A DNA stretch of 64,000 nucleotides from Bacilli bacterium (GCA_017450215.1 JAFSVH010000101.1:1534-65533), one strand, 5' to 3'. Counted from the stretch's first letter, positions 267-21,414 are shown. The notes: generated by a model from the letters alone, not told the origin. Made by a program: numbers and translations.

Positions 267-1784
267 TTATTTTACCTCATACATAGGTTTATTAATTATT
301 AAAGGTTTTTCAAAGTAAGTTTTTAATTGAGATGTTGCTTCTACTTTACCCCCATTTATTTTAAATATCATTATGTTAATACCTATGAAGTTATTCAAAT
401 CCAATTCATGAGGTAATTTATTTAATAAGACATTGATAATAAAATTGTTATTTCTATTAATTAAATGAACATAATTTTGTATTTCAATATTCAATAAACT
501 CTCATCATTCAAATCGTAATTACGCCTATAACTAACTGCTTTTCTACTAATAATAGTTTTACCACAATCATTTCTAATTGTAATAGGTATAAATGGATTT
601 ATATATTCTTTGTTTTTCCTATATCCATATAAATTAATAAAAATTGTAGTTCCATTCGCAAAAAAGTAATCATTCAAAAATCTTATTGATAATATTTCAT
701 TCGTAATATTTAATTTAAATTTAACAATTTCCTCGACATATTTTATTGCCAATGTTTCTTTTTTATATATATTTCTATTATTATCACTTAACCAAAAACT
801 TCCTAATGAAAATCTTTCAATATACTTAGTTATTTCTTCACAATGAAAAAACCTATCAACAATTGATATATTCCATTCTATACTACCAATATCTATAATA
901 TCATCATAAATGTATTTTATTTCATTTTTTGGAAAATATTTCAAAAATTGTAAAATGAAATCATCTATAAATAAATTATACAAATTAATCAAAACAGTTC
1001 TTACTTTATGAACAATTTTATATTTCACTGTATATTTATGTACTTCTTTAAAATTAATTTTAGTATAATTAAATTTCAAATAGTTATATAAATCTATAGC
1101 ATACTGCAATTTACATTTTTTTGGTTCTCTAATCATCGCAATATTTTCAGTAAATTCATAAAAATAAACAACCAATTGTATAAATGTAAAATCATAATTA
1201 AAAGTAAGAACATTGATATTGTTGTCTATATTTAAATACATATTTTTGTTAAAATCAAATTCTTTAAAAAAGTGATTTTCAGTTTTTATTTCAATTATAA
1301 AAGTTTCATTCATGAAAGAGACGTTCAATTTGTTTTCCCCTAAAAAATCTGTGAAGACTTCGTTTTGATCATAACAATCAAAATTACTCTTTACAATTTC
1401 CTTGAACTCTTCAATTTTAAAATCAGATCTTAAAATTATATCTATATCACCAAATTGTCTTTTCCAACCATTGTAAATAATTATCTCAAGTGGATATCCC
1501 TTATAAATCAAGAATTGCTGTCTATGTTCTTTTAAAGAAAATAAAAGCTTTTTAAAAAACATCAGGAAAATTAATCTATTTTCGGCAAATGAGTTTTTAA
1601 CTATTTCAATATTACTTAGATTAAATAAAGAACTTTCAACAAGCAAATCATAATAATGAATAAAAATTTTATGTTTAATTAGAAAATTAATAATATATTC
1701 AGTATTTATATCTACATTTTCATCAATATACAAAATATGGTTATTTCTAATCAATTCAAGAATAAACTTATCTTCCAATTTCAT
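267..1784 (-). CDS. nucleotidyltransferase-fold (pol-beta-type NTase) protein, 505 aa
   Basis: Six-frame ORF. Motif GWKRQFGDIDIILRSDF fits the hG[GS]...DxD NTase signature. It is the last gene of the tightly packed operon, 10 nt after the ABC gene. Confidence 0.55.
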   Translation of the reverse strand: MKLEDKFILELIRNNHILYIDENVDINTEYIINFLIKHKIFIHYYDLLVESSLFNLSNIEIVKNSFAENRLIFLMFFKKLLFSLKEHRQQFLIYKGYPLEIIIYNGWKRQFGDIDIILRSDFKIEEFKEIVKSNFDCYDQNEVFTDFLGENKLNVSFMNETFIIEIKTENHFFKEFDFNKNMYLNIDNNINVLTFNYDFTFIQLVVYFYEFTENIAMIREPKKCKLQYAIDLYNYLKFNYTKINFKEVHKYTVKYKIVHKVRTVLINLYNLFIDDFILQFLKYFPKNEIKYIYDDIIDIGSIEWNISIVDRFFHCEEITKYIERFSLGSFWLSDNNRNIYKKETLAIKYVEEIVKFKLNITNEILSIRFLNDYFFANGTTIFINLYGYRKNKEYINPFIPITIRNDCGKTIISRKAVSYRRNYDLNDESLLNIEIQNYVHLINRNNNFIINVLLNKLPHELDLNNFIGINIMIFKINGGKVEATSQLKTYFEKPLIINKPMYEVK

Positions 1785-1794
1785 TTATATTAAT

Positions 1795-3444
1795 CTATAA
1801 AAGAACTATATTATCAGCAAATGAATCAAATTGTGAGTCATGTGTGAAAACAATTATTGTTTTATCCTTTTTTAAAGTATGTATATATTCAATAATTTTT
1901 TTACTATTTTCATTATCAATTTCAGATGTTGGCTCATCTAAGATATAAACATTTGTTTCTTTAAGTAAAGTTCTTAATAAACAAATTCTTCTTTTTTCAC
2001 CTCCAGATAAATTAGAACTATTTAAATTAATAACAAAGTCCATTCCATTCTTCTCAATTAAACGAGTTAAATTTAATTCTCCTATAAGTATTTTCAATTT
2101 TTCTTCACTATAGTTATTATTCCCATATGTAACATTATCAATAAACGATCTATTAAACAATTGTATATCTTGAAATAAAACTCCTACAGAAGAAATATCA
2201 TATTCATAATTCTTTTCATCATTTATTAAAATTTCACCACTTTTTGGTGTTAATAATCCAAGCATTAATTTTATTAAGGTGCTTTTACCCTTACCACTCT
2301 CTGATTTAACAACAGTTATTTCATTACTATTGAATACTAAGTTTAAATTTTGATATATTTCTTTTTCACCATAATTGAATGATAAGTTTTTAATTTCAAT
2401 AATTGGAGATCTATCAATCTTTTTTATCCCATTCATTTTGACTTCATAATCACAAAGGTTTATCTCGAATAAACGGCTAAGTGCTTTATCCCCCTCAGCT
2501 AAAAGTTTAGCGTATCTACTAAAGCCTGATATAGGGGTATATAATTTTTGAACATATAAATAAGCAATAGTAAATGCACCAGCTGTTAAAATATTAATAT
2601 TTATCATATAAAATGTGACAAGTAAAACTAATACAATTCCAATCGTTTTAACAACACTAATTGTCGGAAAAAGTGCAGATAGGCTTTTATTAAGTTTAGT
2701 AGTTTGTTTGTACGAATCATTTAAATAGCTATTTGCCAAATACGATTCATTTTCTTCTTCTCTATTGATATGAACCATTTTTAAATTCTTTATTAATGAT
2801 AAAAAATAATTATTTGTATCGTCCGTAATTGATGAAATATAACCAGAGTATTTTTTAGTGGTATTTCCAATTTTAGTTGAAATGAAATAAACTGGAAACA
2901 CAAATATAATAGCTGTTAAAGCTACTTTCCAATTCCATACAAAGAAAATTATTATTATCCATATTACTTCTATAATATCTCTAATAAAACCATTAAATGG
3001 TGTTACAATAATTTGACTAGTGTATGTTATATCTTTAGTAATTCTAGTTATAAGATCGCCTTCTTTTAAAAATGAACTATCTGGATCATAATTATTAATT
3101 ATTTTTGCAAACATATCTTTTTGTACTGCTATTTTTATCAATAAACCAAATTGGGATACAAAATAACCAAAAGCTGTATTAAGGATTGAAACTATAATCA
3201 AAACTAAGCCAAAAATCAACAGTAGCAAAACTATTCTATTATCAAGTGCATTATATAATATTAAAGCCACTCCCGAAAGTTTATCAGGATTAGCAACCAT
3301 ATCTATAATATAACCTATCATTAAAGTTGGGATAGATGATAAAAAACCTGTTATTATCGATAACAAAATATACATTACAATTTTATATTTATTATTCTTA
3401 ATATATGGATATAAATTTTTAATACCTGTACAATTCAATTTCAT
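1795..3444 (-). CDS. ABC transporter permease/ATP-binding fusion (peptide-exporter type, no C39 peptidase domain)
   Basis: N-terminal 6-TM region. Walker A SGKGKST, signature LSGGEKRR, Walker B ILDEPTSEID. Overlaps the upstream gene by 4 nt (ATGA). Confidence 0.85.
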   Translation of the reverse strand: MKLNCTGIKNLYPYIKNNKYKIVMYILLSIITGFLSSIPTLMIGYIIDMVANPDKLSGVALILYNALDNRIVLLLLIFGLVLIIVSILNTAFGYFVSQFGLLIKIAVQKDMFAKIINNYDPDSSFLKEGDLITRITKDITYTSQIIVTPFNGFIRDIIEVIWIIIIFFVWNWKVALTAIIFVFPVYFISTKIGNTTKKYSGYISSITDDTNNYFLSLIKNLKMVHINREEENESYLANSYLNDSYKQTTKLNKSLSALFPTISVVKTIGIVLVLLVTFYMININILTAGAFTIAYLYVQKLYTPISGFSRYAKLLAEGDKALSRLFEINLCDYEVKMNGIKKIDRSPIIEIKNLSFNYGEKEIYQNLNLVFNSNEITVVKSESGKGKSTLIKLMLGLLTPKSGEILINDEKNYEYDISSVGVLFQDIQLFNRSFIDNVTYGNNNYSEEKLKILIGELNLTRLIEKNGMDFVINLNSSNLSGGEKRRICLLRTLLKETNVYILDEPTSEIDNENSKKIIEYIHTLKKDKTIIVFTHDSQFDSFADNIVLL

Positions 3445-4382
3445 TGATAATCACCTACCTCATTGATAAATTTAAATATCTTATCTAATTGGCTATAATC
3501 ATATTTATATGTTAATTTATAACCATTTATTTTATTTTTATCTATTAATTCCTTTATTTGTATAATTTCCTTATTGAGCTCACTTTTTGTTAATGTATCA
3601 TAATCATAAACATTTTTTAAAAAATAACAAAACAACTCTGATTTACTTATTTTTTCTATTATAGGAAAATCACTTAATTCATTATTTTCTAAAATAATAA
3701 AATTGTATTTAAAGCTTTTTTCTTTAACCCAATCACTATGATTGTAAATTTCTAAATTAATATATTTTTTATTCTCACCTAATAATGAACTATAGACACA
3801 ATTTGTATCTATACTATTAATAATATTTTTAAAACTATCCTCCCATAATCTTACAACTTTAGAACCTGCTAATATTTCAAAATTATTATTAAAAACTATT
3901 TTATCATCACTAATTAAACCATAATTATGATTTTTCACCAAATAAGATGCAATTGTTGACTTTCCCAATCCTGATTTTCCTATTAATGCAAAAACTTTAT
4001 TTTTATTATAAATAGCAGTACCATGTATAACAAAATTATTATTAAAACGTAAAAGACTTATCAGACCATTTCCCATAGAAATCCTATATAGCAACTCATT
4101 TCTTTCAGGAAAATCATTTTTCTTATCATAATATATTAATATATTATCTTTGTCTATTTTCATCTCAATTCCAGTCTTGTAAAAAAACACTTTTTCTTTT
4201 TTATTAGAAAATATTTTTGAAATTTTATTTTCTATTAATTCACTTTTTTCTTTATACTTAAATGCTCTTTTAGATAGCATTATTCTTATTGTTTTTGAAT
4301 ATGGGTGCTGAACAGTGTCGAAATTATTGATATTAAACTCTGTCAACACCATCATATCATATATATAGCATACATTGTCCAT
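3441..4382 (-). CDS. HPr kinase C-terminal-domain-like P-loop kinase (HprK-related)
   Basis: HGTAIYNKNKVFALIGKSGLGKSTIASYL resembles the HPrK/P P-loop. The ORF track starts at TTG 4403. I prefer ATG 4382, which is preceded by GAGGAGAAA. Confidence 0.6.
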   Translation of the reverse strand: MDNVCYIYDMMVLTEFNINNFDTVQHPYSKTIRIMLSKRAFKYKEKSELIENKISKIFSNKKEKVFFYKTGIEMKIDKDNILIYYDKKNDFPERNELLYRISMGNGLISLLRFNNNFVIHGTAIYNKNKVFALIGKSGLGKSTIASYLVKNHNYGLISDDKIVFNNNFEILAGSKVVRLWEDSFKNIINSIDTNCVYSSLLGENKKYINLEIYNHSDWVKEKSFKYNFIILENNELSDFPIIEKISKSELFCYFLKNVYDYDTLTKSELNKEIIQIKELIDKNKINGYKLTYKYDYSQLDKIFKFINEVGDYQ

Positions 4383-4555
4383 TTTCTCCTCTTCTCGAAT
4401 CAACTCTATATTTTACATTGTATTTAAAATATTCAATATCAAAGAATCACATAATAATTTTTTTAAACACAGTTATTTAAGAAATCCTACTCTAAAAAAC
4501 ATATAGCTTTATTTATATTTTACTTGAATAACCTAATTAAAAATATACATCACGA

Positions 4556-5905
4556 TTAATCTTGAGATTTAATAATATTTAGTATATTTGTCCCTTTTTG
4601 GCAATACTTTTTTCTCAATTTTAAAACGAAGTTTTTAAGTTCGGGCATTAAAATTTCATTGTGAACTTTATGAGAATTATTTACGAACAAATTTATTTCT
4701 ATAATATCAAGTAAATGTGAATAATTGTTTATAAATTCAAGAGTTTTGTTTCTATCCAAATTAGATTCACAAAAATAACCAAACAATAATGAAACATGTG
4801 TAATTATATTAAATCTTTTTAAGTTGGTTAATATTGGTACTATACTCTCAATTTTTATTTTTTTATTAAATAGCATCAACATTTTTTTTGAATATGATTC
4901 TATTCCTAAAAAAAGTTTTATACACCCTGCTTTTTTTATTATTTTTACGAATTCCTCACTTTGAAATTTAACTCCAAATCGTGTTGAAGCCATCCACGTT
5001 ATTTTTATATTTCTTTCCAATATTTCTTTAGAAAAAATTATTAAATAATTTTCATGAATAAAACTATCTACAAATTTAAATTTTTTTATTTTATATTTTT
5101 TATGAAGATATAATATTTCATCAATCAATATAGTGATTGTTTTTATATGTGAAGTCCAATTAAATTTAGATTCATAGCAAAATTCACACTTTCCATAATA
5201 GCATTTACTAGATGTCCTTATAGGAAAATAATAAAAACTATCTCTTTTATCAATATTAAAATTCAAGTCAAGCAAACTATTGTTTTGCACATCTTTTGTT
5301 GAGAAAATATGTTCTCTAAATAGATAACAGTTAGAAATATTGTCTAAAGAAAACAAGCCTTTGAATGTATATTTTTTCTCAATTACTATATTTTTAAAAA
5401 ATAAATATAAATTTTTCAAAAAAGATATATAGTTAACATATAAAAAGATGTTTTCGAACTCTATATTAGTAAATTTTGTTTTTAAGAATATTTCACCTAA
5501 AAGATAAATATTAATTCTTTCTTTATCAATTTGTTTTGCAATGACTAATGAAATAATTAAACTATCAAAATCATAAGCATATAGAAATACTATATGTTCA
5601 CTTAATGGTATTCTTTCAAAAAAATGTAATACTTGGAATACCTTATATGTTTCATCTACTAGTGTCTGAATATTTAATTCTTTGTTAAATATTATCCTAT
5701 TTTCATCGAATTTAAATAAATGTTTATACTTTGTTTTTATTATTGTAAAGGTATGTGGCGAATATAATTTAAACATATTTTCTATATTATTTATTTCCGT
5801 GATATTTATATTAAATAAATTACTTATTTTTATTAAAATCAAATAATCATAATAATATAGATTGCTCATACCATTATAAACATACAAAGAGTATTTATAA
5901 TTCAT
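4556..5905 (-). CDS. radical SAM protein with N-terminal ~230-aa domain (class-B/B12-binding-like architecture) and non-canonical CX4CX2C motif
   Basis: SSKCYYGKCEFCYES, read from the DNA as TGC TAT TAT GGA AAG TGT GAA TTT TGC. Downstream LFLGIESYSKKML resembles the GxES motif of B12-rSAM enzymes. Confidence 0.7.
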   Translation of the reverse strand: MNYKYSLYVYNGMSNLYYYDYLILIKISNLFNINITEINNIENMFKLYSPHTFTIIKTKYKHLFKFDENRIIFNKELNIQTLVDETYKVFQVLHFFERIPLSEHIVFLYAYDFDSLIISLVIAKQIDKERINIYLLGEIFLKTKFTNIEFENIFLYVNYISFLKNLYLFFKNIVIEKKYTFKGLFSLDNISNCYLFREHIFSTKDVQNNSLLDLNFNIDKRDSFYYFPIRTSSKCYYGKCEFCYESKFNWTSHIKTITILIDEILYLHKKYKIKKFKFVDSFIHENYLIIFSKEILERNIKITWMASTRFGVKFQSEEFVKIIKKAGCIKLFLGIESYSKKMLMLFNKKIKIESIVPILTNLKRFNIITHVSLLFGYFCESNLDRNKTLEFINNYSHLLDIIEINLFVNNSHKVHNEILMPELKNFVLKLRKKYCQKGTNILNIIKSQD

Positions 5906-6833
5906 ATTTATACACTATTCCCAAAACATTGTTATTATTGATTTCAGTCTTTTCATTAGAATTATCACCTTTAGTTATAATAGAATCTTTTCCTATTGAT
6001 ATTATTCTATGAACAACTAAAACTTTATTACTATTATAAAGTATTACATCTCCTTTCTTCAAATTTGTAATTTCTACTTTTTTAATCAAAATGTCATCAC
6101 CATCCTTTAAAAAAGGAGACATACTTGAGCCATAAATTTTTGTTATTATTTTCTTAGTCTTATACAATATCTTTTTAACTAATTCTACTGAGATATAAGG
6201 TAAAACATTAATATTATTAAAGACATATACCGCTTTTTTGTATGCTATATCACAGCAATTTAGTTTTTCATCTTCAGTTAAATAAAGTTTTTTTGTGAAA
6301 GCATAGATATACGCAGGACAAGCATCACATAAATTAACATAGTTGCAATTATGGCATTTTGAGTTAGGATTTTCAGTATATGCATCCAAAAAAACCCCAA
6401 TCTTTTCCCATGCTTCCGAAAATGATAATTCATTTAAATCAATTTTACAAAAATCTCCATAAAGACATGGTTTTAAGATTAAATTTGAATTAATATAAAA
6501 AGAATATCTTCCACCTCCACAATCAAAACATTTTTCACGTCTTTCATTCTTATAATCAATTTGCCAATTGTGTATTAAATTATCATCTTGTGACAACAGT
6601 ATATTTACAATTTTGCCTGAAGAACATTGAAAATCAACTATTGAATCATCTCCATTCAATGATGGCCACAAATTATAATCAAAACGAAATTCAATCTCCA
6701 TTTTTTTTGCCAATGAAGACACTTTTTCAAACATACTATAATTATAATTTGTTAAAACCATCTTTATACCAACATTAATTTCCTTTTCCTTCAACTTCTT
6801 TAAGTTATCCATAATAATATCGTATGGTTTCAA
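5895..6833 (-). CDS. SPASM-domain protein lacking a radical SAM CxxxCxxC triad, fused to a C-terminal SipW/ER-type (S26B) signal-peptidase-like domain
   Basis: Seven-Cys SPASM pattern CFDCGGG...PC...FC...C.NC....C..C. C-terminus has GSSMSPFL...GDVILYNSN...VHRIISIGKDSIITKGDNSN, matching the SM(E/S)P Ser box, the His box and the KGDNN box of SipW-type peptidases. No CxxxCxxC and no TM segment. Confidence 0.65.
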   Translation of the reverse strand: MKPYDIIMDNLKKLKEKEINVGIKMVLTNYNYSMFEKVSSLAKKMEIEFRFDYNLWPSLNGDDSIVDFQCSSGKIVNILLSQDDNLIHNWQIDYKNERREKCFDCGGGRYSFYINSNLILKPCLYGDFCKIDLNELSFSEAWEKIGVFLDAYTENPNSKCHNCNYVNLCDACPAYIYAFTKKLYLTEDEKLNCCDIAYKKAVYVFNNINVLPYISVELVKKILYKTKKIITKIYGSSMSPFLKDGDDILIKKVEITNLKKGDVILYNSNKVLVVHRIISIGKDSIITKGDNSNEKTEINNNNVLGIVYKYEL

Positions 6834-6907
6834 TAAAGGATTACATCCATAATAATCTTCATTTTTCTAAATGTATCATGTGTTTTTACCTCATTCCTTA
6901 TAACAAA

Positions 6908-7387
6908 TTACTTCTTAATTTCCAGTGTAATTGTTACTTTATCACTTGTTGAAAGTAATTCTTTTATTTTATTCTCACTTAAATTGATACGACCAAGTTT
7001 AGTAAATGACCAACTATTATTACCATAATACAAACATATTTGATTAGAATTATAAAGTACTATATCACCTGGACCTACATTCATTCTTTCATCATTACTA
7101 ACTAATGTAAATCCTAGTAAACCTGTTTGTTCAAAATTACCATATTCATGTAATTCAATAGTTAATTCATTATTAATATGATTCATTAGATCTTTTACTG
7201 ATGCATTATCATACCATATTACATCAATTACATCACTTCCAATTTTTAATATCATTTTAACCTCTTCTGCTTCTTCTTCATTATTTGTTATATCATTAGT
7301 TGGTTTCGTGTTTTCTGTATCTTCATTATTATAACTACATCCAACTAATAATAACAATAAAACAAATATTAATATTATTCTTTTCAT
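6908..7387 (-). CDS. lipoprotein, cyclophilin-like (PF04126-type) domain
   Basis: Signal peptide with lipobox LLVGC, then a D/E/N-rich linker. The domain pattern IGSDVIDVIWYDNASVKDL...GPGDIVLYNSNQICLYYG matches the cyclophilin-like family. An own promoter and RBS AGGAGA lie upstream. Confidence 0.55.
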   Translation of the reverse strand: MKRIILIFVLLLLLVGCSYNNEDTENTKPTNDITNNEEEAEEVKMILKIGSDVIDVIWYDNASVKDLMNHINNELTIELHEYGNFEQTGLLGFTLVSNDERMNVGPGDIVLYNSNQICLYYGNNSWSFTKLGRINLSENKIKELLSTSDKVTITLEIKK

Positions 7388-7443
7388 ATTGTATTTCTCC
7401 TATGTCTATTTTACCACAATATCTTTCTTTTTCCCATAGATAA

Positions 7444-7480
7444 CAAAAAAAGCCAGTCTTGTGGACTGACAGTTTTTATT
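7444..7480 (-). terminator. bidirectional hairpin terminator after the AKR operon
   Basis: CCAGTC-ttgtg-GACTG hairpin at 7453-7469, flanked by an A-run (7445-7451) and a T-run (7473-7480). Confidence 0.45.
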
Positions 7481-8321
7481 TTGCTTCATATGTAGGATGC
7501 CATTTAGCATATTCTTCAACACGATCATCATCTGCTTCATATCTACGCTTTCCTACATTTAATTTTGCCATTTTTTTCATATCATCATTATCTAACTTGA
7601 AATCAAATATATTAATATTATCTTTAATATGATCTACATTCTTAGAACCAGGAATTACAATAAATCCCATTTGATTATGCCATTTTAATACTACTTGAGC
7701 AGTTGATTTATTATGCTTTTTCGCTATACCCTTTACTATCTCACTATCAAGAAGTTCAGCAGTCATTCCTTTTCCACCTAGTGGATACCAGCTCATTATT
7801 CTAATGTTTTCTTTTTCTGTTATTTTTCTTAGATTATCTTGTGGGAAAAATGGATGACATTCAACTTGAATAACTTGAGGAATAATATCATATTCATCTA
7901 ATACTTCATTGATATGTTTTTCAAAATTAGAAATACCAATTGATTTAATTTTACCTTCTTTATAAGCTTTTACTAACTGATCATATCCATGACGCCAATT
8001 AGATGTTGCTTGATGAATAAATAATAAATCAATATAGTCTACTCCAAGTCTTTCTAGTGTTTCATCAACTGCGTTAGGATTTTCGTATTCAGAAGCCCAT
8101 AGTTTAGTAGACAAAAAGATATCTTCTCTTTTGATACCACTATCTTTCATAGCACGCCCAACTGCTCTTTCATTACAATATGCATTTGCAGTATCAATTA
8201 ACTTGTAACCTAATTTTAATGCATTTAATACACTATTATAAGCATCTTTTGGTTCAAGTAGGAATGTCCCAATTCCTACACTTGGCATTAATACATTGTT
8301 GTTTAATTTAAATTCTTTCAT
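7476..8321 (-). CDS. aldo/keto reductase (2,5-diketo-D-gluconate reductase-like)
   Basis: Motifs LMPSVGIGTF, IDTANAYCNE and IPGSKN typical of the AKR family. Confidence 0.9.
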   Translation of the reverse strand: MKEFKLNNNVLMPSVGIGTFLLEPKDAYNSVLNALKLGYKLIDTANAYCNERAVGRAMKDSGIKREDIFLSTKLWASEYENPNAVDETLERLGVDYIDLLFIHQATSNWRHGYDQLVKAYKEGKIKSIGISNFEKHINEVLDEYDIIPQVIQVECHPFFPQDNLRKITEKENIRIMSWYPLGGKGMTAELLDSEIVKGIAKKHNKSTAQVVLKWHNQMGFIVIPGSKNVDHIKDNINIFDFKLDNDDMKKMAKLNVGKRRYEADDDRVEEYAKWHPTYEAK

Positions 8322-8322
8322 C

Positions 8323-8835
8323 TTATAAATTCTCCTTTATCCATTTTTCTACTTTGTCTTTTGATTGATATACATTTGATCCAACAATGGCTAGTCCACT
8401 TTTAATTGTTGCATTTGGTGCATATTTTTTAATATCTCTTACAATACTAGCTAAGCCACTTCCTTCATGCGTTGAAAATGGCATAATTACTTTACCATCA
8501 AAATTTAATCTAGAAAGAAGAGTAAACATTGGTTGTGGTAATGTCCCCCAATATATTGGTCCACCAATAAAGATAACATCATAATTACTTATATCATCTA
8601 AATAATTCTTTAATTCTGGAAGTTCACCATTTCTTTGTTCTATCTTAGCTTCTTCAATACAAGTTCTATAATCTTTAGCATAATCGATCTTTCTTTCAAC
8701 TTTGAATAGATCAGCTCCCGTAATATCCCTAATCTCCTCCGCAACAACTTCTGTATTCCCTTTAGTGATGTACCGCATTGCACCACCAAAATAATTTTCA
8801 TCAATTCTTGAAAAATATATTACAAGTGATTTCAT
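8323..8835 (-). CDS. flavodoxin-family protein
   Basis: MKSLVIYFSRIDENYFGG N-terminus and ~170 aa flavodoxin-like fold. Stop/start adjacent to the AKR gene. Confidence 0.7.
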   Translation of the reverse strand: MKSLVIYFSRIDENYFGGAMRYITKGNTEVVAEEIRDITGADLFKVERKIDYAKDYRTCIEEAKIEQRNGELPELKNYLDDISNYDVIFIGGPIYWGTLPQPMFTLLSRLNFDGKVIMPFSTHEGSGLASIVRDIKKYAPNATIKSGLAIVGSNVYQSKDKVEKWIKENL

Positions 8836-8846
8836 TGTTTAACTCC

Positions 8847-9383
8847 TTATACATTTAATCCCATTTGGTATGCTTCAATAAATGAAGCTTTTTCTTTTAT
8901 TTCACCTTTTTGATAAACACCAATTCCATAAATAATGCCTTTTTCAACTGCACCTTCTACACAATCAGCATAACCTCTAAAACATTCAATAGTACGCTCT
9001 TGTGAAGTTTTATCGTCATCGGCACAAGTTACAATATAATAGAATTCTTTATTTTTAACTTCTTCCCAACGAGCAACAGTTCGATCAATTAATGCTTTTA
9101 ACTGTGCATCAATAGAATAAAAATAAACAGGACTTGCTAAAACTATTACATCGCTATCTATCATCTTTTGTAAAATAGGAGCCATATCATCTTTAATAGC
9201 ACAAATACCATTTGACTTTTGACAATAATAACAAGCAGTACAGTATCCAATTTTCTTTTCCGATACTCTTATCTTTTCAACATCATGCCCTGCATCCTTT
9301 GCTCCACGCATGAATTCATCACATAAAAGATCTGAATTTCCACCCTTTCTAGGGCTACCTGATAATATTAATACTTTCTTCAT
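8847..9383 (-). CDS. NADPH-dependent FMN reductase-like / iron-sulfur flavoprotein (Isf-like)
   Basis: MKKVLILSGSPRKGGNS flavodoxin-like N-terminus plus compact Cys motif CTACYYCQKSNGIC (CX2CX2CX6C), as in iron-sulfur flavoproteins. Confidence 0.7.
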   Translation of the reverse strand: MKKVLILSGSPRKGGNSDLLCDEFMRGAKDAGHDVEKIRVSEKKIGYCTACYYCQKSNGICAIKDDMAPILQKMIDSDVIVLASPVYFYSIDAQLKALIDRTVARWEEVKNKEFYYIVTCADDDKTSQERTIECFRGYADCVEGAVEKGIIYGIGVYQKGEIKEKASFIEAYQMGLNV

Positions 9384-9386
9384 TAT

Positions 9387-9914
9387 TTATTTCTCCTTAT
9401 ATTTATTTATATAATTTAATACTATTTCTTCTACTTCTATGGCTCCATCAGTAAAGCACCATAAATTAAGGGCACCATAATATATACTTACTATTTCTTT
9501 TGCGATTTCTTCATTATATAATTCTTTAACATATGCTAAATCATAAGCAAGTTTAGTCTTACCATGAAAGCCACCTAATACTCCATGACTAAACCATACT
9601 TGACACATCTTTAAGCCACTTTTCTTTATTCTTTTAATTGAAGTTATAAGAAAATATTCTAATTTCTCATATTTAGAATAATCACCTTCTAATTTAGAAT
9701 CATCAAAATACATGCTTATTTGTTTTTCAATTAAATCTTCTTTGGATTCAAAATGAATATAGAATGCTCCTTTCGACACTCCTGCTTCTTTTGTAATTTC
9801 TGATACTGAAACATTATCGAATCCTTTTTCATTAATAAGCTTTAATGCTACTTCAATTATTTTGTCTTTATTTTCATTAGATTTTGCTGTTCTTGATTCA
9901 TTATTGTATTTCAT
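9387..9914 (-). CDS. TetR/AcrR family transcriptional regulator
   Basis: N-terminal HTH FDNVSVSEITKEAGVSKGAFYIHF. First gene of the TetR-Isf-flavodoxin-AKR operon. Confidence 0.8.
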   Translation of the reverse strand: MKYNNESRTAKSNENKDKIIEVALKLINEKGFDNVSVSEITKEAGVSKGAFYIHFESKEDLIEKQISMYFDDSKLEGDYSKYEKLEYFLITSIKRIKKSGLKMCQVWFSHGVLGGFHGKTKLAYDLAYVKELYNEEIAKEIVSIYYGALNLWCFTDGAIEVEEIVLNYINKYKEK

Positions 9915-9980
9915 AACTACATTATATCATTTAATTGACCAGTAGTCAACTAATTTATTTTATTTTTTAAAAAAATGATT

Positions 9981-10081
9981 TTTTTTGATTTTTGATTTTG
10001 CGACTTTTTGTGCACGATTTTGGCGGTGATTATTTTTGATTTTTGATTTTACGACTTTTTGTGCACGGTTTTGGCGGTGAT
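9981..10081. repeat. two tandem copies of a ~51-bp direct repeat (~94% identical)
   Basis: ttttttgatttttgattttgcgactttttgtgcacgattttggcggtgat at 9981-10030, then tatttttgatttttgattttacgactttttgtgcacggttttggcggtgat at 10031-10081. Confidence 0.85.
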
Positions 10082-10117
10082 TTTTCATACAAGCGTTAAA
10101 CTTGATTTACTATTTAT

Positions 10118-10175
10118 TTGGTTCAATTCTCGTTGTCTTTACAGGTTCGATTCTCGTTTCACTCAAAAATTTTCA
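10118..10175 (+). repeat. two partial plus-strand copies of the tRNA-Gly T-arm/acceptor 3' segment
   Basis: GGTTCaATTCTCGTTgtc and GGTTCGATTCTCGTTtcac versus tRNA-Gly 3' sequence GAGTTCGATTCTCGTTACC. They are inverted relative to the intact tRNA at 10331-10405. Confidence 0.5.
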
Positions 10176-10238
10176 ATGCTTCGACTCCTTGGAGCGTTGT
10201 CCATAGTGCATTGGACAAAAAGTAGTTTTTTAGAGCAT

Positions 10239-10279
10239 AAAAAAAGAGCTGAAACTTAGTTTTTTGCTAAATTTCAGCT
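10239..10279 (-). terminator. hairpin terminator downstream of tRNA-Gly
   Basis: AGCTGAAA / TTTCAGCT stem with a 17-nt loop. Preceded on plus by AAAAAAA, which is a U-run after the stem on minus. Confidence 0.45.
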
Positions 10280-10330
10280 TATTTTCACTAAATATCGCTT
10301 ATTTATAAAGGACATTTAGACCAATGCACT

Positions 10331-10405
10331 TGGAGCAGGTAACGAGAATCGAACTCGCATCTTCGCCATGGCAAGGCGGTATATTAGCCGTTGTACTATA
10401 CCTGC
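10331..10405 (-). tRNA. tRNA-Gly (anticodon GCC)
   Basis: Hand fold of the 75-nt minus-strand sequence. Acceptor stem GCAGGTA/TACCTGC, T-arm GCGAG-TTCGATT-CTCGT, anticodon loop TTGCCAT, 3' TCCA. The D-stem is weak (3 bp). Confidence 0.75.
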
Positions 10406-10422
10406 ATTTCACTAACATAAGC

Positions 10423-10451
10423 ATTTTAACATATCTAAATCATAAATGCAA
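10423..10451 (-). promoter_or_regulatory. sigma-A-type promoter for tRNA-Gly (TTGCAT-17-TAAAAT)
   Basis: Minus-strand TTGCAT (10451-10446), 17-nt spacer, TAAAAT (10428-10423), then ~17 nt to the tRNA 5' end. Confidence 0.45.
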
Positions 10452-10551
10452 GAAAAAATAATTTTTTTTATTCATTATAAATCTTTAATATTATTGTTTT
10501 CATCATAAATAATAAAATATGTTATAATGGTTTCATATTATAGGTGAAAAC

Positions 10552-11133
10552 ATGCAATATTATAATGATTTACCAAATGGTTATGTCGTATATAAAATAA
10601 TCGATGCTGAAAAGAAAAAAACTGCTATATATTTTAGTATTGGTGGAATAATCATAACCATTATTTCTTTAATTTTACTAATCATAATTAAAAAAATAGA
10701 ATTTACTTTTGCTATCAATATAAAAAATGCTCTTGGCATTCTTCTTTTTGGCTTTATCTTGATAGCTAATATATTTGTACATGAATTAACCCATGGACTA
10801 TTCTACAAATTATTCACGAAACAAAAATTAAAATTTGGTTTCACTAAATTTAATGCTTATTGTGGTGCTCCTAATATCTACATGAAGAGAAATCCTATGA
10901 TCATTATATCTCTTGCACCTTTTATTATTTATTCAATAATAAGCATCTTATTAATAATTATACTTCCACCTAATCTTACTTGCTTCTTTGTAATTATTTA
11001 TTTTTCAAATCACATTGGTGGTTGTATTGGCGATATTTATGTTGCAATACAATTAATATTCAATGTGAATAAAAATGCACTAGTAAATGATACAGGACAG
11101 AAACAAACAATATATAAAAGAAACGCTTTATAA
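10552..11133 (+). CDS. polytopic membrane protein with HExxH motif (putative membrane zinc metalloprotease, DUF3267-like)
   Basis: Several hydrophobic segments and FVHELTHGLFYKLF. RBS AGGTGA and an extended -10 TGTTATAAT lie upstream. Confidence 0.5.
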   Translation: MQYYNDLPNGYVVYKIIDAEKKKTAIYFSIGGIIITIISLILLIIIKKIEFTFAINIKNALGILLFGFILIANIFVHELTHGLFYKLFTKQKLKFGFTKFNAYCGAPNIYMKRNPMIIISLAPFIIYSIISILLIIILPPNLTCFFVIIYFSNHIGGCIGDIYVAIQLIFNVNKNALVNDTGQKQTIYKRNAL

Positions 11134-11196
11134 TAAATTATTAATAATAAATTATTTATAATTAATTATTTATTTTTTATAAGATACTCATAAGAA

Positions 11197-11258
11197 ACGC
11201 TTTAATTAAAGATGCAAAATATCAATTATAATTTTGCACATTAATTAAAGCGCCTTTT
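11197..11258 (+). terminator. long inverted repeat / terminator after the 10552-11133 gene
   Basis: Arms ACGCTTTAATTAAAGATGCAAAAT and ATTTTGCACATTAATTAAAGCG with a 10-nt loop, followed by CCTTTT. Confidence 0.45.
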
Positions 11259-11398
11259 AAATTGTCAAAAAAGATATTAAATTATTATATTAATTGAATA
11301 ATATGATTATAGTGGGCTTAATCATAATATCAAGTAGTAAGAACTTAATTTCAATAATCAGTTTTTATATTAAACAAATGTATCTTTATTTGTTATTT

Positions 11399-11959
11399 TT
11401 AATTATTATTTTTCTTTTTCTTATTATTAGTTTCTTTAGTTTCTTTCTCAGTAGTTAAATCTACATCAATAAAATCTTCATCGCCATATTTGCCATCGTT
11501 GCCATCTGATTCTTCTTTTTCTTTTACACCATTTTTGCTATCATAAATAGCAATAATCTTTTTCATTTCTTCTAAAGTTGGTTCATCAAATTCTTCTGGC
11601 CCATCATCGCGAAGCTTCAAATCCTTAAATTTTTCATAGAATGATTTTAAATGAATGAAAATGATTCTTTCACCGACAACTTCATTTGTATAGATAGTCT
11701 TATCGCCAACTGTTTGTTGACGGCAAACTAATCTTCCTTTTACACCCACAATATCACCTTTAGCACAATACTCATAAATATTTTGAGCATAAACATTCCA
11801 AAATGTCACAGGAATAAAATCACTCTTATATTCATTAGTATCCATTTCTCTAAAATTCCTTTGAACCTTTAAAACAACATTAATAACATCAAATTGATTA
11901 ATATGTTTTAAATTCAAATCATTTGCGATAGCTCCTACTAAAATTATATTATTAATCAT
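11399..11959 (-). CDS. ssb: single-stranded DNA-binding protein (SSB-like, OB fold) with non-canonical K/N-rich C-terminus
   Basis: MINNIILVGAIANDLNLK...VTFWNVYAQNIYEYCAKGDIVGVKGRL resembles the SSB OB fold. Acidic linker, but the tail ends NNKKKKNNN rather than DDDIPF. ATG 11959 with AAAGGAGG is preferred over track start 11992. Confidence 0.55.
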   Translation of the reverse strand: MINNIILVGAIANDLNLKHINQFDVINVVLKVQRNFREMDTNEYKSDFIPVTFWNVYAQNIYEYCAKGDIVGVKGRLVCRQQTVGDKTIYTNEVVGERIIFIHLKSFYEKFKDLKLRDDGPEEFDEPTLEEMKKIIAIYDSKNGVKEKEESDGNDGKYGDEDFIDVDLTTEKETKETNNKKKKNNN

Positions 11960-12243
11960 GTTTTTTCCTCCTTTCACTTGAATTATAAACAACTAAAAAA
12001 TATAACTCAAACCAGAAATGGTACTCAAAAACAGTTTTATAAAATGAAAAATGGCGTTATTCTATAAAAAAAAGAGATAAGTTAACTTATCCCTTTTTTG
12101 ATAATAATCATTTTATAAAAAAGATTAATTTAAAAAGTATTTTTAAAAATACACTTTTTTATTTATTCTTTTTTTATCAAACTATTATAAACAATTATAA
12201 ATAATTAAAAACAATTAAAAACAATTATAAATAATTGTTATGA

Positions 12244-17254: not shown

Positions 17255-20032
17255 TTATTTATCATTTACAATTTCATGACATCTTTGGCAAAGACCATCT
17301 TCACCAACACTAGGAACAATCTTCCAACATCTTTCGCAAGTTATACCATCACATAGATGAACACTAATCTTACCAATATTATAATCATTTGCGTCAATAT
17401 CATGATCAACAATTTCAAGTGAAGAAACGATGAAGACACGTTCTAAATCACATTTCATACTATCAAGCAATTCTTTTGCATCACTATTTGGATAAATAAT
17501 TAATTTACTAGCTAAAGATTTACCAATAATCTTGTTATTTCTTGCTTCTTCAATTGCTTTTAATACATCATCTCTCAAAACCATGAATTTAGCATATTTA
17601 TTTAATAAATATTCACTATCTTCATATTTTATAGTCTTAACCATTCTAAGTAGATATACACTTTCTTTATCCATATCACTACCCATATTCTTCATAAATG
17701 AATAGATTTCTTCACAAGTGAATGGAATAATAGGTGTTAATAATCTGACTAAAGCATTCAAATTATCGAATAATACAGTTTGAATTGATCTACGTTTGAT
17801 ATTATTATATTTTTCAATATAAAGAATATCTTTTGTGAAATCTAGATAGAAAGCACTTAAATCATTAGTCATATAATTTAGTACACTTCTATATACTTCA
17901 TCACAGCTAAGTGATTCATAAGCTTTATAGCATTTTTCTAATAATTGATTTAATTTACATTCAATATATTTACTTACTTCATCTAAATCTTTATATTCAA
18001 TTCTATCTTTATCATTATTATAATCACTTAAATTACCAAGTAAGAATCTGAAAGTATTTCTTATCTTACGATAAGCTTCAGTATTTTGTTTTAAGATGTC
18101 TTTACTTACTCTAATATCAGCAGTATATTCACTAGATGCAACCCATAATCTTAAGATGTCAGCACCATATTCTTTGCATACTTGATTTGGATCAATTGTA
18201 TTGCCAGCACTCTTACTCATCTTATTTCCTTGACCATCAAGAGTAAAGCCATGTGTAATTACACGTTTATAAGGTGCTTTTCCAGTCATAGCAACACCAG
18301 TTGATAAGCTAGAATTGAACCAACCACGATATTGATCACTACCTTCTAAATATACATCAGCTGGATATGGTAAATTACGTGCAACTAATACACCATGATG
18401 ACTTGTTCCACTATCAAACCATACATCCATAATGTCTGTTTCTTTTGTAAAGATTCCATTAGGGCTAGATGGATGAGTGTAACCTGCTGGAAGCAATTCT
18501 TTTGCATCTTTACTAAACCATGCATCAGTTCCTTCCTTCTCAACAATACTAGCAACATGTAAAATTACATCTTCATCTAAAATACAATCACCATTCTCAC
18601 AATAGAATACAGGAATTGGAACTCCCCATACTCTTTGACGTGAAATGCACCATTCTTTACGGTCCTTAACCATATTACCAATACGAGTATCACCCCAAGA
18701 AGGCTTCCATTCAACTTCACTAATAGCTTTCATCATATCATCTTTTAATGCATCAATTGAAGCAAACCATTGTGGAGTAGCTCTAAAGATAATAGGCTTC
18801 TTTGTTCTCCAGTCATGAGGATATGAGTGAACAATTGTCTTCTTAAGCAATAAGAAGCCTCTAGAATCAAGGTTTTCAATAATAACTTGATTAGCATTAT
18901 CATAGAATAAACCAGCGAATTCACCAGCTTCTTCAGTCAAAAAACCTTTAGAATCAACATTAACTAAAACATCAAGACCATAAGTACGGCCTACATTGAA
19001 GTCATCCTCACCAAAGCCAGGAGCAGTATGAACTAAACCTGTACCAGCATCAAGTGTTACATGGTTACCCAAAATAACTGGACAAACCTTACCTGCTGGG
19101 TTCTTATATTGTACATATTCTAATTCTCTACCTTTAATAGTCTTTACGACTTCATAGTCACCTTCTTCAAAGCCCATTTCTTTTAAAACTGAAGCTGCTA
19201 ATTCTTTTGCAAATACTAATTTTCTATTAGATAATTTATTATCTTCTTTTTCACCTAATTTTACTACTACATATTCATATAAAGGATTAACACTAACTGC
19301 AAGGTTTGCAGGAATTGTCCATGGAGTAGTTGTCCAAATTGTGATTTCTTCATCTAAATCAAGAACACCTTTGCCATCAATAACTGGGAATCCTAAAAAG
19401 ATACTTTCGCCTTTTACATCATAATATTCAATTTCAGCTTCTGCTAAAGCAGATTCACTTGATGGTGACCAATAAACTGGCTTTAAGCCTTTATAGATTA
19501 AACCACGTGAAGCCATTCTAGCAAATACACGAAGTTGTTCTGCTTCAAATTTAGGATCTAATGTTAGATATGGATCTTCCCAATCACCTAAAACACCCAA
19601 TCTCTTGAAGCCTTCTTTTTGAAGTGCAACTTGTTTAAGTGCATATTCCCTACACATTTTTCTAAATGCAACAGTTTCAACTTCTTTACGATTAACCTTT
19701 AATGCTTTTGTTAGAGCATTTTCAATTGGTAAACCATGAGTATCCCAACCAGGAATATAAGGTGAATAATAACCTTCCATTGTATAGAATCTAATTAAAA
19801 TATCTTTTAATATTTTATTTAATGCATGTCCAATATGAATATTACCATTAGCATATGGTGGACCATCATGTAAAATAAAACTTAAATTCTTCTTATTCAA
19901 TTCTAAATTCTTTTTATAGATATCTAATTCATCCCATTTTTTTACTAAATCAGGTTCCTTTGTAGGCAAATTAGCCTTCATTGAAAACTCTGTATTCATC
20001 ATAAGCAATGTATCTTTATAATCTCTTTCCAT
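17255..20032 (-). CDS. ileS: isoleucine--tRNA ligase
   Basis: HIGH motif PYANGNIHIGHALN, KMSKS motif, C-terminal Cys-rich zinc ribbon (CERCWK...CQRC). Confidence 0.95.
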   Translation of the reverse strand: MERDYKDTLLMMNTEFSMKANLPTKEPDLVKKWDELDIYKKNLELNKKNLSFILHDGPPYANGNIHIGHALNKILKDILIRFYTMEGYYSPYIPGWDTHGLPIENALTKALKVNRKEVETVAFRKMCREYALKQVALQKEGFKRLGVLGDWEDPYLTLDPKFEAEQLRVFARMASRGLIYKGLKPVYWSPSSESALAEAEIEYYDVKGESIFLGFPVIDGKGVLDLDEEITIWTTTPWTIPANLAVSVNPLYEYVVVKLGEKEDNKLSNRKLVFAKELAASVLKEMGFEEGDYEVVKTIKGRELEYVQYKNPAGKVCPVILGNHVTLDAGTGLVHTAPGFGEDDFNVGRTYGLDVLVNVDSKGFLTEEAGEFAGLFYDNANQVIIENLDSRGFLLLKKTIVHSYPHDWRTKKPIIFRATPQWFASIDALKDDMMKAISEVEWKPSWGDTRIGNMVKDRKEWCISRQRVWGVPIPVFYCENGDCILDEDVILHVASIVEKEGTDAWFSKDAKELLPAGYTHPSSPNGIFTKETDIMDVWFDSGTSHHGVLVARNLPYPADVYLEGSDQYRGWFNSSLSTGVAMTGKAPYKRVITHGFTLDGQGNKMSKSAGNTIDPNQVCKEYGADILRLWVASSEYTADIRVSKDILKQNTEAYRKIRNTFRFLLGNLSDYNNDKDRIEYKDLDEVSKYIECKLNQLLEKCYKAYESLSCDEVYRSVLNYMTNDLSAFYLDFTKDILYIEKYNNIKRRSIQTVLFDNLNALVRLLTPIIPFTCEEIYSFMKNMGSDMDKESVYLLRMVKTIKYEDSEYLLNKYAKFMVLRDDVLKAIEEARNNKIIGKSLASKLIIYPNSDAKELLDSMKCDLERVFIVSSLEIVDHDIDANDYNIGKISVHLCDGITCERCWKIVPSVGEDGLCQRCHEIVNDK

Positions 20033-20075
20033 GTTCTTCCCCTTACTATTAACACATCATTCTTTTATACAATTC

Positions 20076-20117
20076 TTATTATTTTATAATTATTATTTTA
20101 TAATTATTATTTTATAA
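20076..20117. repeat. three perfect tandem copies of 14-bp TTATTATTTTATAA
   Basis: Read directly from the sequence at 20076-20089, 20090-20103 and 20104-20117. Lies in the ileS upstream region. Confidence 0.9.
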
Positions 20118-20381
20118 CTACGCAAAAATACTATTTATTAAAAATGTATATAAATACATTATTCCTTCATAAAGTATAATACCAACTACAGGAGTAAAAT
20201 CTAAAAATCCTATTGTTAGATAACCCCTAAAAACACCAATATATGCATCACTTATTCTTCTTAAAAATCTAAAGAAACCAACGTTATAAACAAATGGAAT
20301 CCAAGATAGAATAATATTTAAAACAATCAAACCAAAATAAGCTTGCATCAAATAATAAAAAGCAGTAAAGACAAATTCCAT
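20118..20381 (-). CDS. YggT-family membrane protein
   Basis: 87-aa two-TM protein in the conserved ylmE-sepF-yggT-ileS arrangement. Confidence 0.75.
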   Translation of the reverse strand: MEFVFTAFYYLMQAYFGLIVLNIILSWIPFVYNVGFFRFLRRISDAYIGVFRGYLTIGFLDFTPVVGIILYEGIMYLYTFLINSIFA

Positions 20382-20384
20382 AAT

Positions 20385-20720
20385 TTAATCCTTGTTTTCA
20401 TTAACCCACTTTTCAACAGATCCATCTTCTAATGCTTTACCACTAGCAAACAAGAATAGACGTTCATTCATTGTGAAAAGATTGCCTGAAAGGGCATAAA
20501 CACAACCACTAATAAAAGATAACATGTGATTGCAATCTTGAGCAACTAAGCTATCAAAATTAGCAAGAACTGGTTTATCTTTTAAAAGATAATCACAAAT
20601 AGTGAAGATCTCATCATCACTATTTGTATTAACACGATAAAATACTATTTCATCTTTTGATTGTAATATTGGACCTTGTCCTTTTATTTCTTCTTTATTC
20701 TTTTTACTAAAAAGTCCCAT
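20385..20720 (-). CDS. sepF: cell division protein SepF
   Basis: C-terminal SFISGCVYALSGNL resembles the SepF core motif. Position between yggS and yggT. Confidence 0.7.
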   Translation of the reverse strand: MGLFSKKNKEEIKGQGPILQSKDEIVFYRVNTNSDDEIFTICDYLLKDKPVLANFDSLVAQDCNHMLSFISGCVYALSGNLFTMNERLFLFASGKALEDGSVEKWVNENKD

Positions 20721-20733
20721 ATAAACTCCTAAT

Positions 20734-21414
20734 TTATTCCATGAAAATATGGCCTAATCTAACACATGTTGAACCATATTTAACAGCTATTAAATAATCA
20801 TTACTCATTCCCATTGATAATTCATGACATGGAGCATAATCTAATTGCAAATCTTCAATTTCTTTTTGCAATTTTTGCATTCTAGAAAATTCACTAATTA
20901 ATACTTCATCATCAAATGTCATTTTCGCAATGCACATAAGACCAATAACTCTAATATTCTTACACATTGATAATTGCTTAATAAAAGCTTTTACCTTTGC
21001 TGGAGCAACTCCACTCTTATTAGGTTCTTCAGAAATATTAACTTGAACATAGCAATCTAATGTTTTATCTAATCTACTATCTAATTCCATTGCAGTTGGA
21101 AGCTTGCATAAGGAATGAAGACAGTCAATCTTATTTACAACATCTTTAATCTTCCGAGATTGAACAGTACCGAAGAAATGCCATTTTACATTTAAATCCT
21201 TCATTGCTTCATATTTTTCTAAGAACATATCTGTTCTATTTTCACCAATCTCATCTATTCCAGCAAGTACTAGCTCTCTTGTTTCTTCAACAGTCATATA
21301 TTTGCTTGCAGCAACAATTTTAATGTTTGGATAATCTTTTAAACTATCTTTAACTGCTTGGACTTTTTTCACATATTTATTTCCATTATTTTCCATTTTT
21401 TCCACCGTTATCAC
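20734..21414 (-). CDS. YggS/YlmE family pyridoxal-phosphate homeostasis protein
   Basis: IKIVAASKYMTVEETRELVLAGIDEIGENR and HFFGTVQSRK match the YggS family. Confidence 0.85.
   Translation of the reverse strand: MITVEKMENNGNKYVKKVQAVKDSLKDYPNIKIVAASKYMTVEETRELVLAGIDEIGENRTDMFLEKYEAMKDLNVKWHFFGTVQSRKIKDVVNKIDCLHSLCKLPTAMELDSRLDKTLDCYVQVNISEEPNKSGVAPAKVKAFIKQLSMCKNIRVIGLMCIAKMTFDDEVLISEFSRMQKLQKEIEDLQLDYAPCHELSMGMSNDYLIAVKYGSTCVRLGHIFME

Follow-up and report, generated by a model that had tools for sequence, protein, structure and literature searches.

A truncated locus in a Bacilli genome as the probable remnant of a radical-SAM peptide cassette with a lasso-type tailoring module

The 64,000-nucleotide stretch of Bacilli bacterium DNA studied here (GCA_017450215.1, JAFSVH010000101.1:1534-65533; "the window" denotes the whole of it) carries at its left end, on the minus strand, genes for an HprK-like P-loop kinase, an ATP-binding cassette (ABC) exporter and a large nucleotidyltransferase (NTase), preceded by two genes of the radical S-adenosylmethionine (rSAM) type, the first of which is truncated. 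The original prediction had placed the kinase, exporter and NTase, together with the sequence motifs quoted for the kinase and the NTase, exactly where we find them. Based on comparison with related loci, we read bases 267-6864 as the 3' three-quarters of a seven-gene cassette for a peptide that the ribosome makes and that is modified after translation (RiPP), fitted with a lasso-type tailoring module and decapitated in this genome; we put the probability of this reading at roughly 0.6. The cassette's tailoring logic corresponds to that seen in phosphorylated lasso peptides, and its scaffold enzymes to those found in rSAM/SPASM RiPPs.

The cassette is seen entire elsewhere. Five full-length relatives of the NTase, each of about 500 residues and 36-80% identical to the window protein, lie in diverged metagenomic loci that share one gene order: a precursor of 37-40 amino acids, a PqqD protein (~98 amino acids), an rSAM/SPASM enzyme fused to an S24/S26-like peptidase (445), a second rSAM enzyme (~449), an HprK/ScmC-like kinase (~310), an ABC exporter (~548) and the NTase (~500). 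PqqD is present in all relatives, with the precursor gene directly upstream of it in the intact ones, and its best model is the lasso PqqD of Bacillota (NF033536, E 1e-9), followed by ScmD. The fused maturase is split into two open reading frames (ORFs) in L008 and gives weak matches to the models of SkfB (E 2e-16), AlbA and PapB. Despite the divergence of the loci, the precursors are near-identical (...KPIIVKVNLNEDVKVFHACKSYQNDSDSCYS) and follow the consensus M(K)KKEY[VIM]KPI[LIV][VI]K[VI]N[FL]NED[VI]K[VI]FHAC[KN][SA][YF]Q[NS]DSDSCYS. All five of them combine a YxxPx(L/I/V) leader motif, two cysteines and a C-terminal serine. Lasso leaders carry YxxPxL (PMC10368454), and a C-terminal serine is the residue that lasso kinases usually phosphorylate (PMC9266682, PMC6993621). 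The genes around the cassette change from locus to locus, in the manner of a mobile island. The cassette is also rare: 185,579 species genomes, scanned once for NTase peptide patterns and once for a degenerate DNA pattern of the precursor, yielded nothing, and a metagenome scan added one further short contig (L016).

In the window, this arrangement is broken off at its upstream end. DNA alignment places the start of homology to the L007 cassette at base 6864, equivalent to residue 123 of the 445-residue enzyme. An in-frame TAG stands just upstream, at 6868-6870, and immediately past it an unrelated gene for a cyclophilin-like lipoprotein (6908-7387) ends in its stop codon at 6908-6910. The identical junction recurs in four independent assemblies from one study (L001-L004) and is therefore not a mis-assembly. 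Searching all 64 kb by tblastn with four family precursors returned only chance-level matches (E of at least 0.03). The same was true of the relatives' PqqD proteins and rSAM N-termini, apart from NrdG (30625-31323), which is the sole other rSAM N-terminus in the window and is not the maturase's missing half. Thus neither the CxxxCxxC motif of the maturase nor a precursor nor a PqqD gene was found in the 64 kb, and with these missing the locus would not be able to tailor a locally encoded peptide. The copy is a 5'-truncated remnant, a feature that the original prediction overlooked, and we infer that it cannot make its peptide from local genes.

The ORF at the break corresponds to residues ~134-445, the C-terminal 70%, of the intact rSAM/SPASM enzyme. 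It aligns to the mycofactocin rSAM model at positions 134-320 only, from which it follows that the catalytic N-terminal half is missing. The SPASM cysteines are kept, the CxxxCxxC motif is absent and no ribosome-binding site precedes the frame; intact orthologues of 445 residues carry RCNFNCPHC at residues 25-33. The remnant also retains a peptidase domain (bases ~5910-6227, GSSMSP...VVHRI...KGDN), which scores 55.6 bits against TIGR02228, above the cut-off of 51.85. This domain is of the endoplasmic reticulum/archaeal (SipW) type, with histidine where bacterial type-I peptidases carry lysine, and is probably a leader peptidase. It is fused to the maturase in L007 (3181-4518), L010 (4650-5987) and L012 (1042-2379), and forms a separate small ORF in L008, L020 and L021.

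Next to the remnant, the second rSAM enzyme is syntenic in all relatives (L007 4508-5854, L008 3951-5261). It matches PF04055 (E 2.4e-9), NF050148 (ApyD, E 5e-18) and TIGR04479 (E 2.5e-16), which puts it nearest to class-B enzymes of the ApyD/PhpK/BchE kind; a B12-binding domain could not be recognised in it. At about residue 235 it carries the cluster motif CYYGKCEFC, a Cx4Cx2C arrangement rather than the canonical CxxxCxxC (SSKCYYGKCEFCYES; SSSCYYRKCIFCYES in L008).

The kinase is read from the ATG at 4382, behind AGAGGAG, rather than from the TTG at 4403 where the mechanically called ORF begins. It carries IHGTAIYNKNKVFALIGKSGLGKST followed by LISDDK, and its P-loop, GKSGLGKST, comes after HGTAI. 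Among NCBIfam families TIGR04352 (HprK-related kinase A) fits best, with E 5.6e-9 over positions 92-279 of the 280-position model, nearly all of its C-terminal two-thirds; at 35.5 bits against a cut-off of 200 the protein stays below the curated equivalog level. PF07475 (Hpr_kinase_C, E 2.9e-5), TIGR00679 and TIGR04355 also match weakly, each below its curated cut-off. The proposal that the protein resembles HPr kinase C-domains is thus borne out by these assignments, at sub-cut-off strength. Across 74 relatives of the kinase, TIGR04352 is matched by 72, TIGR00679 by 47 and TIGR04249 (ScmC) by eight; the window kinase itself has no match to ScmC (TIGR04249/PF27840) at E<0.1. Close homologues are few, with five kinase representatives at E<=1e-30 among 1.84 billion, and a word-indexed homologue search with the kinase alone recovered just one fragment and one relative at 68%; the useful relatives were reached through the NTase. 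One kinase relative, P0010 (297 amino acids, on a 7.2-kb contig), shares its C-terminal ~150 residues identically with P0009, the L012 kinase, and has an unrelated N-terminal half in which the P-loop is missing. Such a chimera may stem from recombination or mis-assembly, and it was left out of the alignments.

The AlphaFold2 model of the kinase has a predicted local distance difference test score (pLDDT) of 82.5 and a predicted template-modelling score (pTM) of 0.84. Foldseek searches with it returned first ATP-dependent phosphoenolpyruvate carboxykinase (PEPCK, E~2e-9) and then HprK/P (E~1e-4), matches that we take to reflect the shared P-loop fold. A profile of the kinase superfamily searched against the Protein Data Bank (PDB) found Lactobacillus casei HprK/P first (E 1.2e-8); PDB sequence searches with single proteins of the locus were uninformative. 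These hits, with the weak PF07475 and TIGR00679 matches, are what could be cited for a genuine HprK/P or a small PEPCK-like metabolic enzyme whose position next to rSAM genes is coincidental. The kinase does share with HprK/P the P-loop fold and the core HG..(x)..GxSGxGKS..(x)..L(I/A)DD. The TIGR00679 score, however, is 22.8 bits against a cut-off of 240, with ~43 residues around the P-loop aligned; the N-terminal domain is of another kind, giving no match to PF02603 (the HprK N-terminal domain); and a six-frame translation of the window contains no His15-type motif of HPr (G[ILVM]H[AT]R[PA]). On these grounds we rejected a genuine HprK/P identity. Compared with PEPCK, its 313 residues fall well short of ~520-540. 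Synteny with RiPP genes is strict in seven loci spanning both cassette types described here, TIGR04352 leads among the relatives, and similarity to the lasso kinase BsfK reaches as far as the RLW segment. A metabolic identity is accordingly scarcely credible.

The connection to lasso kinases is direct. Against BsfK, whose sequence we translated ourselves from bsfK in PMC10368454, the window kinase gives a BLASTP match of E 5e-11 (36% identity over 75 amino acids, spanning HG...GKST...DD...RLW) and an hhalign probability of 96.9% (E 1.7e-10, 122 columns). Six family members share H120, G140, K141, T143 and S158-D159-D160-K161 without variation, and H120, G140, K141, T143, D159 and D160 are at least 90% conserved across the 74 relatives. 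In lasso kinases, ThcoK among them, the His-Lys-Asp-Asp motif is essential by mutagenesis (PMC9266682), and the D158A/D159A variant of PsmK is inactive (PMC6993621). H120, K141, D159 and D160 of the window kinase match the His-Lys-Asp-Asp set and the D158/D159 pair of PsmK, and are candidate catalytic residues.

More distant relatives of the kinase place it in both kinds of cluster. Informative neighbourhoods were available for four of them, divided evenly between lasso clusters and a second rSAM cassette; a fifth, P0020, is surrounded by transposases, which leaves its neighbourhood uninformative. The lasso clusters that hold P0013 and P0014 have an Asn-synthase-like cyclase, a PqqD protein, a protease with a transglutaminase core and an NTase of the PF14907 family, and their precursors terminate in ...GYDS and ...GQRT. 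The kinase adjoins the PF14907 NTase in L014 and in L015, both of them lasso clusters, and L015 has an ABC exporter as well. The lasso link drawn by the original prediction, including the co-occurrence of NTase genes, is upheld by these clusters and by the BsfK alignment. The L014 cluster (5580-11866), which has an HprK/ScmC-like kinase and a precursor ending in threonine (...FGQRT), is set among several glycosyltransferases and a Wzy-like polymerase.

P0021 and P0024 (profile E~1e-27 and ~1e-25) are closer to the window kinase than P0013 and P0014 are, and belong to the second rSAM cassette. There the precursor and PqqD come first, followed in turn by an rSAM/SPASM enzyme, a separate S24 peptidase, an rSAM enzyme, a B12-rSAM enzyme (ApyD-like, E 2e-68) and the kinase; L020 also has a 303-residue PF14907 NTase. 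The precursors are clearly homologous to those of the first family (...ACGSFENDSNSCYS; MYIKPIVVVINLAEETPVFVACGSFENDSNSCYS; ...SCYC in L021), and a C-terminal serine is present in six of the seven related precursors. The replacement of the lasso B and C enzymes by rSAM/SPASM machinery, as originally proposed, therefore holds for the five relatives and for this second cassette type; in the window, the rSAM/SPASM gene is itself truncated. Together these comparisons support the view, drawn from sequence, that a lasso-type module of RiPP recognition element (RRE), kinase and NTase, with or without the ABC exporter, operates in rSAM RiPP clusters. In L021, the gene that follows the kinase (6476-7972) encodes a helicase-like protein with a P-loop (GPAGSGKT) and not an NTase, and this locus offers a natural test case for the residue that the kinase targets.

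Downstream of the kinase, the exporter gene overlaps the kinase stop codon by 4 nucleotides. The protein is a fused permease and ATPase (PF00664 and PF00005) with no C39 peptidase domain, is 86% identical to its L007 orthologue (ratio of nonsynonymous to synonymous substitution rates, dN/dS, 0.14) and is syntenic in all intact relatives.

The NTase carries RQFGDIDIILRSDF and the core YKGY...RQFGDIDII, with GDIDIILRSDF at residues G112-F122 (bases 1419-1451). The carboxylate motif hG[GS]...DxD is present (IYKGY...RQFGDIDII, D113/D115), and R109, Q110, D113 and D115 do not vary within the family, nor does the upstream YKG. Against PF14907 (NTP_transf_5) the window protein scores 19.5 bits (E 8e-4), below the cut-off of 31.2. 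All six members of the ~500-residue family match it at E<0.01, with 5.7e-13 as the strongest value, and precomputed PF14907 matches of the relatives' NTases are mostly flagged as weak. The AlphaFold2 model (pLDDT 76.6) shows an N-terminal NTase core with a helical part extending to about residue 335, followed by a conserved beta-rich domain of ~165 residues (~340-505, bases ~267-767) that belongs to no Pfam family. This domain accounts for the unusual length that the original prediction had remarked on. NTases from lasso clusters and from the second tier of relatives measure 285-396 residues and do not have it, so it is an accretion of the ~500-residue subfamily. Foldseek found a weak resemblance of the domain to CBM9 modules (7nwo, E 1.6e-3; 1i82, E 4e-3) and Ig-like domains. 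A sugar-binding-like module of this kind would fit with hexose addition, and is not evidence for it.

For the N-terminal part, the best structural matches were JHP933 (4o8s, E 1.9e-4), MenT3/TglT, MenT1 and LnuA, at probability 1.0 and E-values from 2e-4 to 1e-2; the family profile found nothing among PDB sequences. On the strength of these matches the protein might be viewed as a MenT-like toxin or an antibiotic nucleotidyltransferase of the LnuA/ANT type that hitch-hikes with the exporter. Template-modelling scores of 0.4-0.58 on the target, at 10-13% identity, show a shared NTase fold and nothing more. There is no antitoxin partner, and the gene is always the last of the RiPP cassette. The family as a whole falls into PF14907, members of which stand beside a kinase in both L014 and L015, and we regard a toxin or resistance role as very unlikely. 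PsmN of the lasso cluster psm is described as an NTP-transferase of an uncharacterised family; it is required for the attachment of one or two hexoses to the phosphoserine of pseudomycoidin, by a mechanism that the authors left unsettled (PMC6993621). The suggested relationship of the window NTase to PsmN draws on the common Pfam family and the genomic context, not on direct alignment.

These observations can be assembled into a working scheme for an intact cassette. PqqD would bind the YxxPx(L/I/V) leader and present it to the rSAM enzyme and to the kinase. This is in keeping with the lasso B1 RRE, which speeds phosphorylation by BsfK (PMC10368454). The rSAM/SPASM enzyme would cross-link the two-cysteine core C(K/N)(S/A)(Y/F)Q(N/S)DSDSCYS, and the second rSAM enzyme would add a further modification. 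The kinase is predicted to phosphorylate a serine of the precursor, most likely the conserved C-terminal one; the serines of DS(D/N)S are alternatives because the L021 precursor ends in cysteine and BsfK targets Ser3. The NTase might then elaborate the phosphate, as PsmN does in adding hexose to phosphoserine, the SipW-like domain (Ser...His type, GSSMSP/VVHRI) would remove the leader, and the ABC pump would export the product. The RRE, kinase, NTase and ABC exporter look like a module of lasso clusters that has recombined with rSAM enzymes. In the window, a deletion or rearrangement would have cost the cassette its precursor and PqqD genes and, from the rSAM/SPASM gene, the first ~122 codons with the SAM-cluster motif. 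Phosphorylation and NTase tailoring outside the lasso context, as the original prediction envisaged, are well supported, as an inference, for the family, but would not take place on a local peptide in this copy, which has no precursor, PqqD or rSAM motif.

Several observations weigh against reading the locus as a decapitated cassette with lasso-type tailoring. The precursor of L021 (146-250) ends in cysteine, and BsfK itself phosphorylates Ser3 and not the C-terminus (PMC10368454), both of which bear on the proposed phosphorylation site. Pairwise and profile comparisons of the 505-residue NTase with those of lasso clusters and of the second tier give marginal similarity around KG...DIDI, and in the window both NTase and kinase score under the curated thresholds of their hidden Markov models. 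The unbroken frames, together with purifying selection and the strong ribosome-binding site of the kinase, allow room for continuing function, or for a precursor encoded outside the 64-kb window.

The retained downstream genes are all full length, with dN/dS values of 0.14-0.28 against L007. A relative-rate test at sites conserved in outgroups counted 18 changes on the window lineage against 26, which is no acceleration. We therefore discarded the idea of an old pseudogene cluster, since neither measure shows relaxed constraint; either the loss is recent or the remainder keeps a residual role. It is possible to go further and suppose that the kinase, exporter and NTase, perhaps with the second rSAM enzyme, are still at work, acting on a precursor supplied in trans or serving self-protection, or a 'cheater' strategy, by exporting or inactivating the peptide of neighbouring strains. 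The four full-length ORFs and their unaccelerated evolution argue for this, and so do the strong kinase ribosome-binding site, the partial conservation of the 173-nucleotide spacer with L007 and the terminator-like hairpin after the NTase. Against it, precursor and PqqD are encoded in cis in every intact relative, nothing precursor-like occurs in the 64 kb, and neither HprK-like kinases nor PF14907 proteins are known to act in immunity. In addition, L002, an assembly of the same strain from another sample, carries a 23-bp frameshifting deletion in the kinase (equivalent to window 3751-3773), leaving ORFs of 207 and 104 amino acids in a 7.5-kb stretch that is otherwise identical. This deletion either marks the onset of pseudogenisation in the population or arose as an error of assembly. 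Overall, we consider a working trio rather unlikely, and the decapitated cassette remains our preferred interpretation.

A more far-reaching version of that interpretation can be put forward tentatively, and we hold it to be possible but on balance doubtful. The intact relatives may constitute an undescribed RiPP class, producing a two-cysteine peptide of ~13 residues that is cross-linked by an rSAM/SPASM enzyme bearing a SipW-like leader peptidase of its own, and is then phosphorylated on serine and decorated with a glycosyl or nucleotidyl group by a kinase and NTase module of lasso origin, of which the window would hold a recently decapitated copy whose kinase, exporter and NTase are perhaps still under selection. 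Our literature search, which covered few of the subscription journals, found no paper on the cassette or on a phosphorylated rSAM RiPP.

Among the closest known systems are the lasso clusters of the paeninodin, pseudomycoidin and bsf types, with the kinases PadeK, ThcoK, SyanK, PsmK and BsfK and the NTases PsmN and BsfN. These clusters and the cassette have in common an HprK-like kinase with His-Lys-Asp-Asp, a PqqD-type RRE, an NTase, an ABC exporter, and precursors with a YxxPxL-type leader and a conserved C-terminal serine. They differ in that the cassette has no Asn-synthase-like C cyclase and no B2 transglutaminase protease, their place being taken by the fusion of rSAM/SPASM enzyme and SipW-like peptidase and by the second rSAM enzyme. 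The cassette NTase is ~200 residues longer than lasso NTases on account of the beta domain, the kinases are 16-22% identical overall, and the window copy, unlike lasso clusters, is without precursor and RRE.

A precedent for joining an HprK-like protein to rSAM/SPASM chemistry, also overlooked in the original prediction, is the SynChlorMet system (ScmC/D/E/F; TIGR04248-04251; PF27840), a curated and functionally untested set in which an HprK-related ScmC, a PqqD homologue and rSAM/SPASM enzymes occur together. The relatives' kinases weakly match PF27840, and their PqqD and rSAM proteins match ScmD and ScmE. All of these Scm matches are far below cut-off, however, the precursor family is another one, and the family names retrieved for SynChlorMet include no NTase, ABC exporter, peptidase fusion or class-B-like rSAM enzyme. 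With sactipeptides and ranthipeptides (AlbA, SkfB, PapB, StsB) the cassette shares a PqqD-type RRE, an rSAM/SPASM maturase and a short cysteine-containing core, but no curated family is reached and the maturase is fused to a signal-peptidase-like domain. We came across kinase and NTase companions of such a maturase in no paper on these classes.

The genes of the locus are all co-directional, in a window of low GC content (21-33%; Table 1). The last ~60 nucleotides of the spacer ahead of the kinase align with the corresponding L007 spacer and end in the kinase ribosome-binding site, and the spacer (4383-4555) may contain an internal promoter. A scan for sigma-70 promoters gave 75 sites against 77.7 expected and is uninformative in such AT-rich DNA (21-26% GC). 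At the other end, 29 nucleotides past the NTase stop codon, the operon closes with a hairpin of arms AATCCTATATAT and ATATATAGGATT around a 15-nucleotide loop, followed by a T-run. With fewer than three G-C pairs in its stem, the hairpin went unreported in a consensus terminator scan.

Table 1. Positions of the genes and sequence elements of the locus, counted from the first base of the window
Feature	Positions	Strand	Size or basis
Deletion/rearrangement junction	6864-6907	minus	DNA alignments
rSAM/SPASM-peptidase remnant	5895-6833	minus	312 aa ORF
Second rSAM enzyme	4556-5905	minus	449 aa
Spacer, second rSAM gene to kinase	4383-4555	minus	173 nt
HprK-like P-loop kinase	3441-4382	minus	313 aa
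Kinase His120 (candidate catalytic)	4023-4025		
Kinase P-loop G135-T143 (candidate catalytic)	3954-3980		
Kinase Asp159-Asp160 (candidate catalytic)	3903-3908		
ABC exporter	1795-3444	minus	549 aa
PF14907-type NTase	267-1784	minus	505 aa
Terminator-like AT-rich hairpin and T-run	195-238	minus	read directly from sequence

Upstream of the junction (6908-10405) lie, besides the cyclophilin-like lipoprotein gene (PF18050), genes for an aldo-keto reductase, two flavodoxin-like proteins and a TetR regulator. These are followed by tRNA-Gly(GCC) (10331-10405) and then by a gene for a protein resembling single-stranded DNA-binding protein (11399-11992), a pairing close to the truncated cluster that hints at an integration hotspot or island border. 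Further on (17255-32579) are the housekeeping genes ileS, argS, nrdD, nrdG and metK, from whose presence the window can be taken as chromosomal DNA of a low-GC anaerobe. On L005, another contig of the same strain, an ISL3-family transposase (5307-6677) lies ~1.8 kb past the glutamate dehydrogenase gene that follows the cluster, so mobile elements are active near the locus.

Phosphorylation of a peptide by HprK-like kinases and its decoration by PsmN-type NTases have so far been documented only for lasso peptides. Our comparison suggests that the kinase and NTase form a portable pair which, with a lasso-type PqqD and an ABC exporter, also serves peptides made by rSAM enzymes. If true, this would be the first phosphorylated rSAM RiPP, and a clear case of a module of tailoring enzymes, RRE and exporter moving between RiPP classes. 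With their compact, highly conserved precursor, the seven-gene cassettes are expressible and could help to settle what PF14907 enzymes transfer. For genome mining, it means that lasso-centred rules miss these kinases, and for this genome that the locus should not be scored as a producing cluster.

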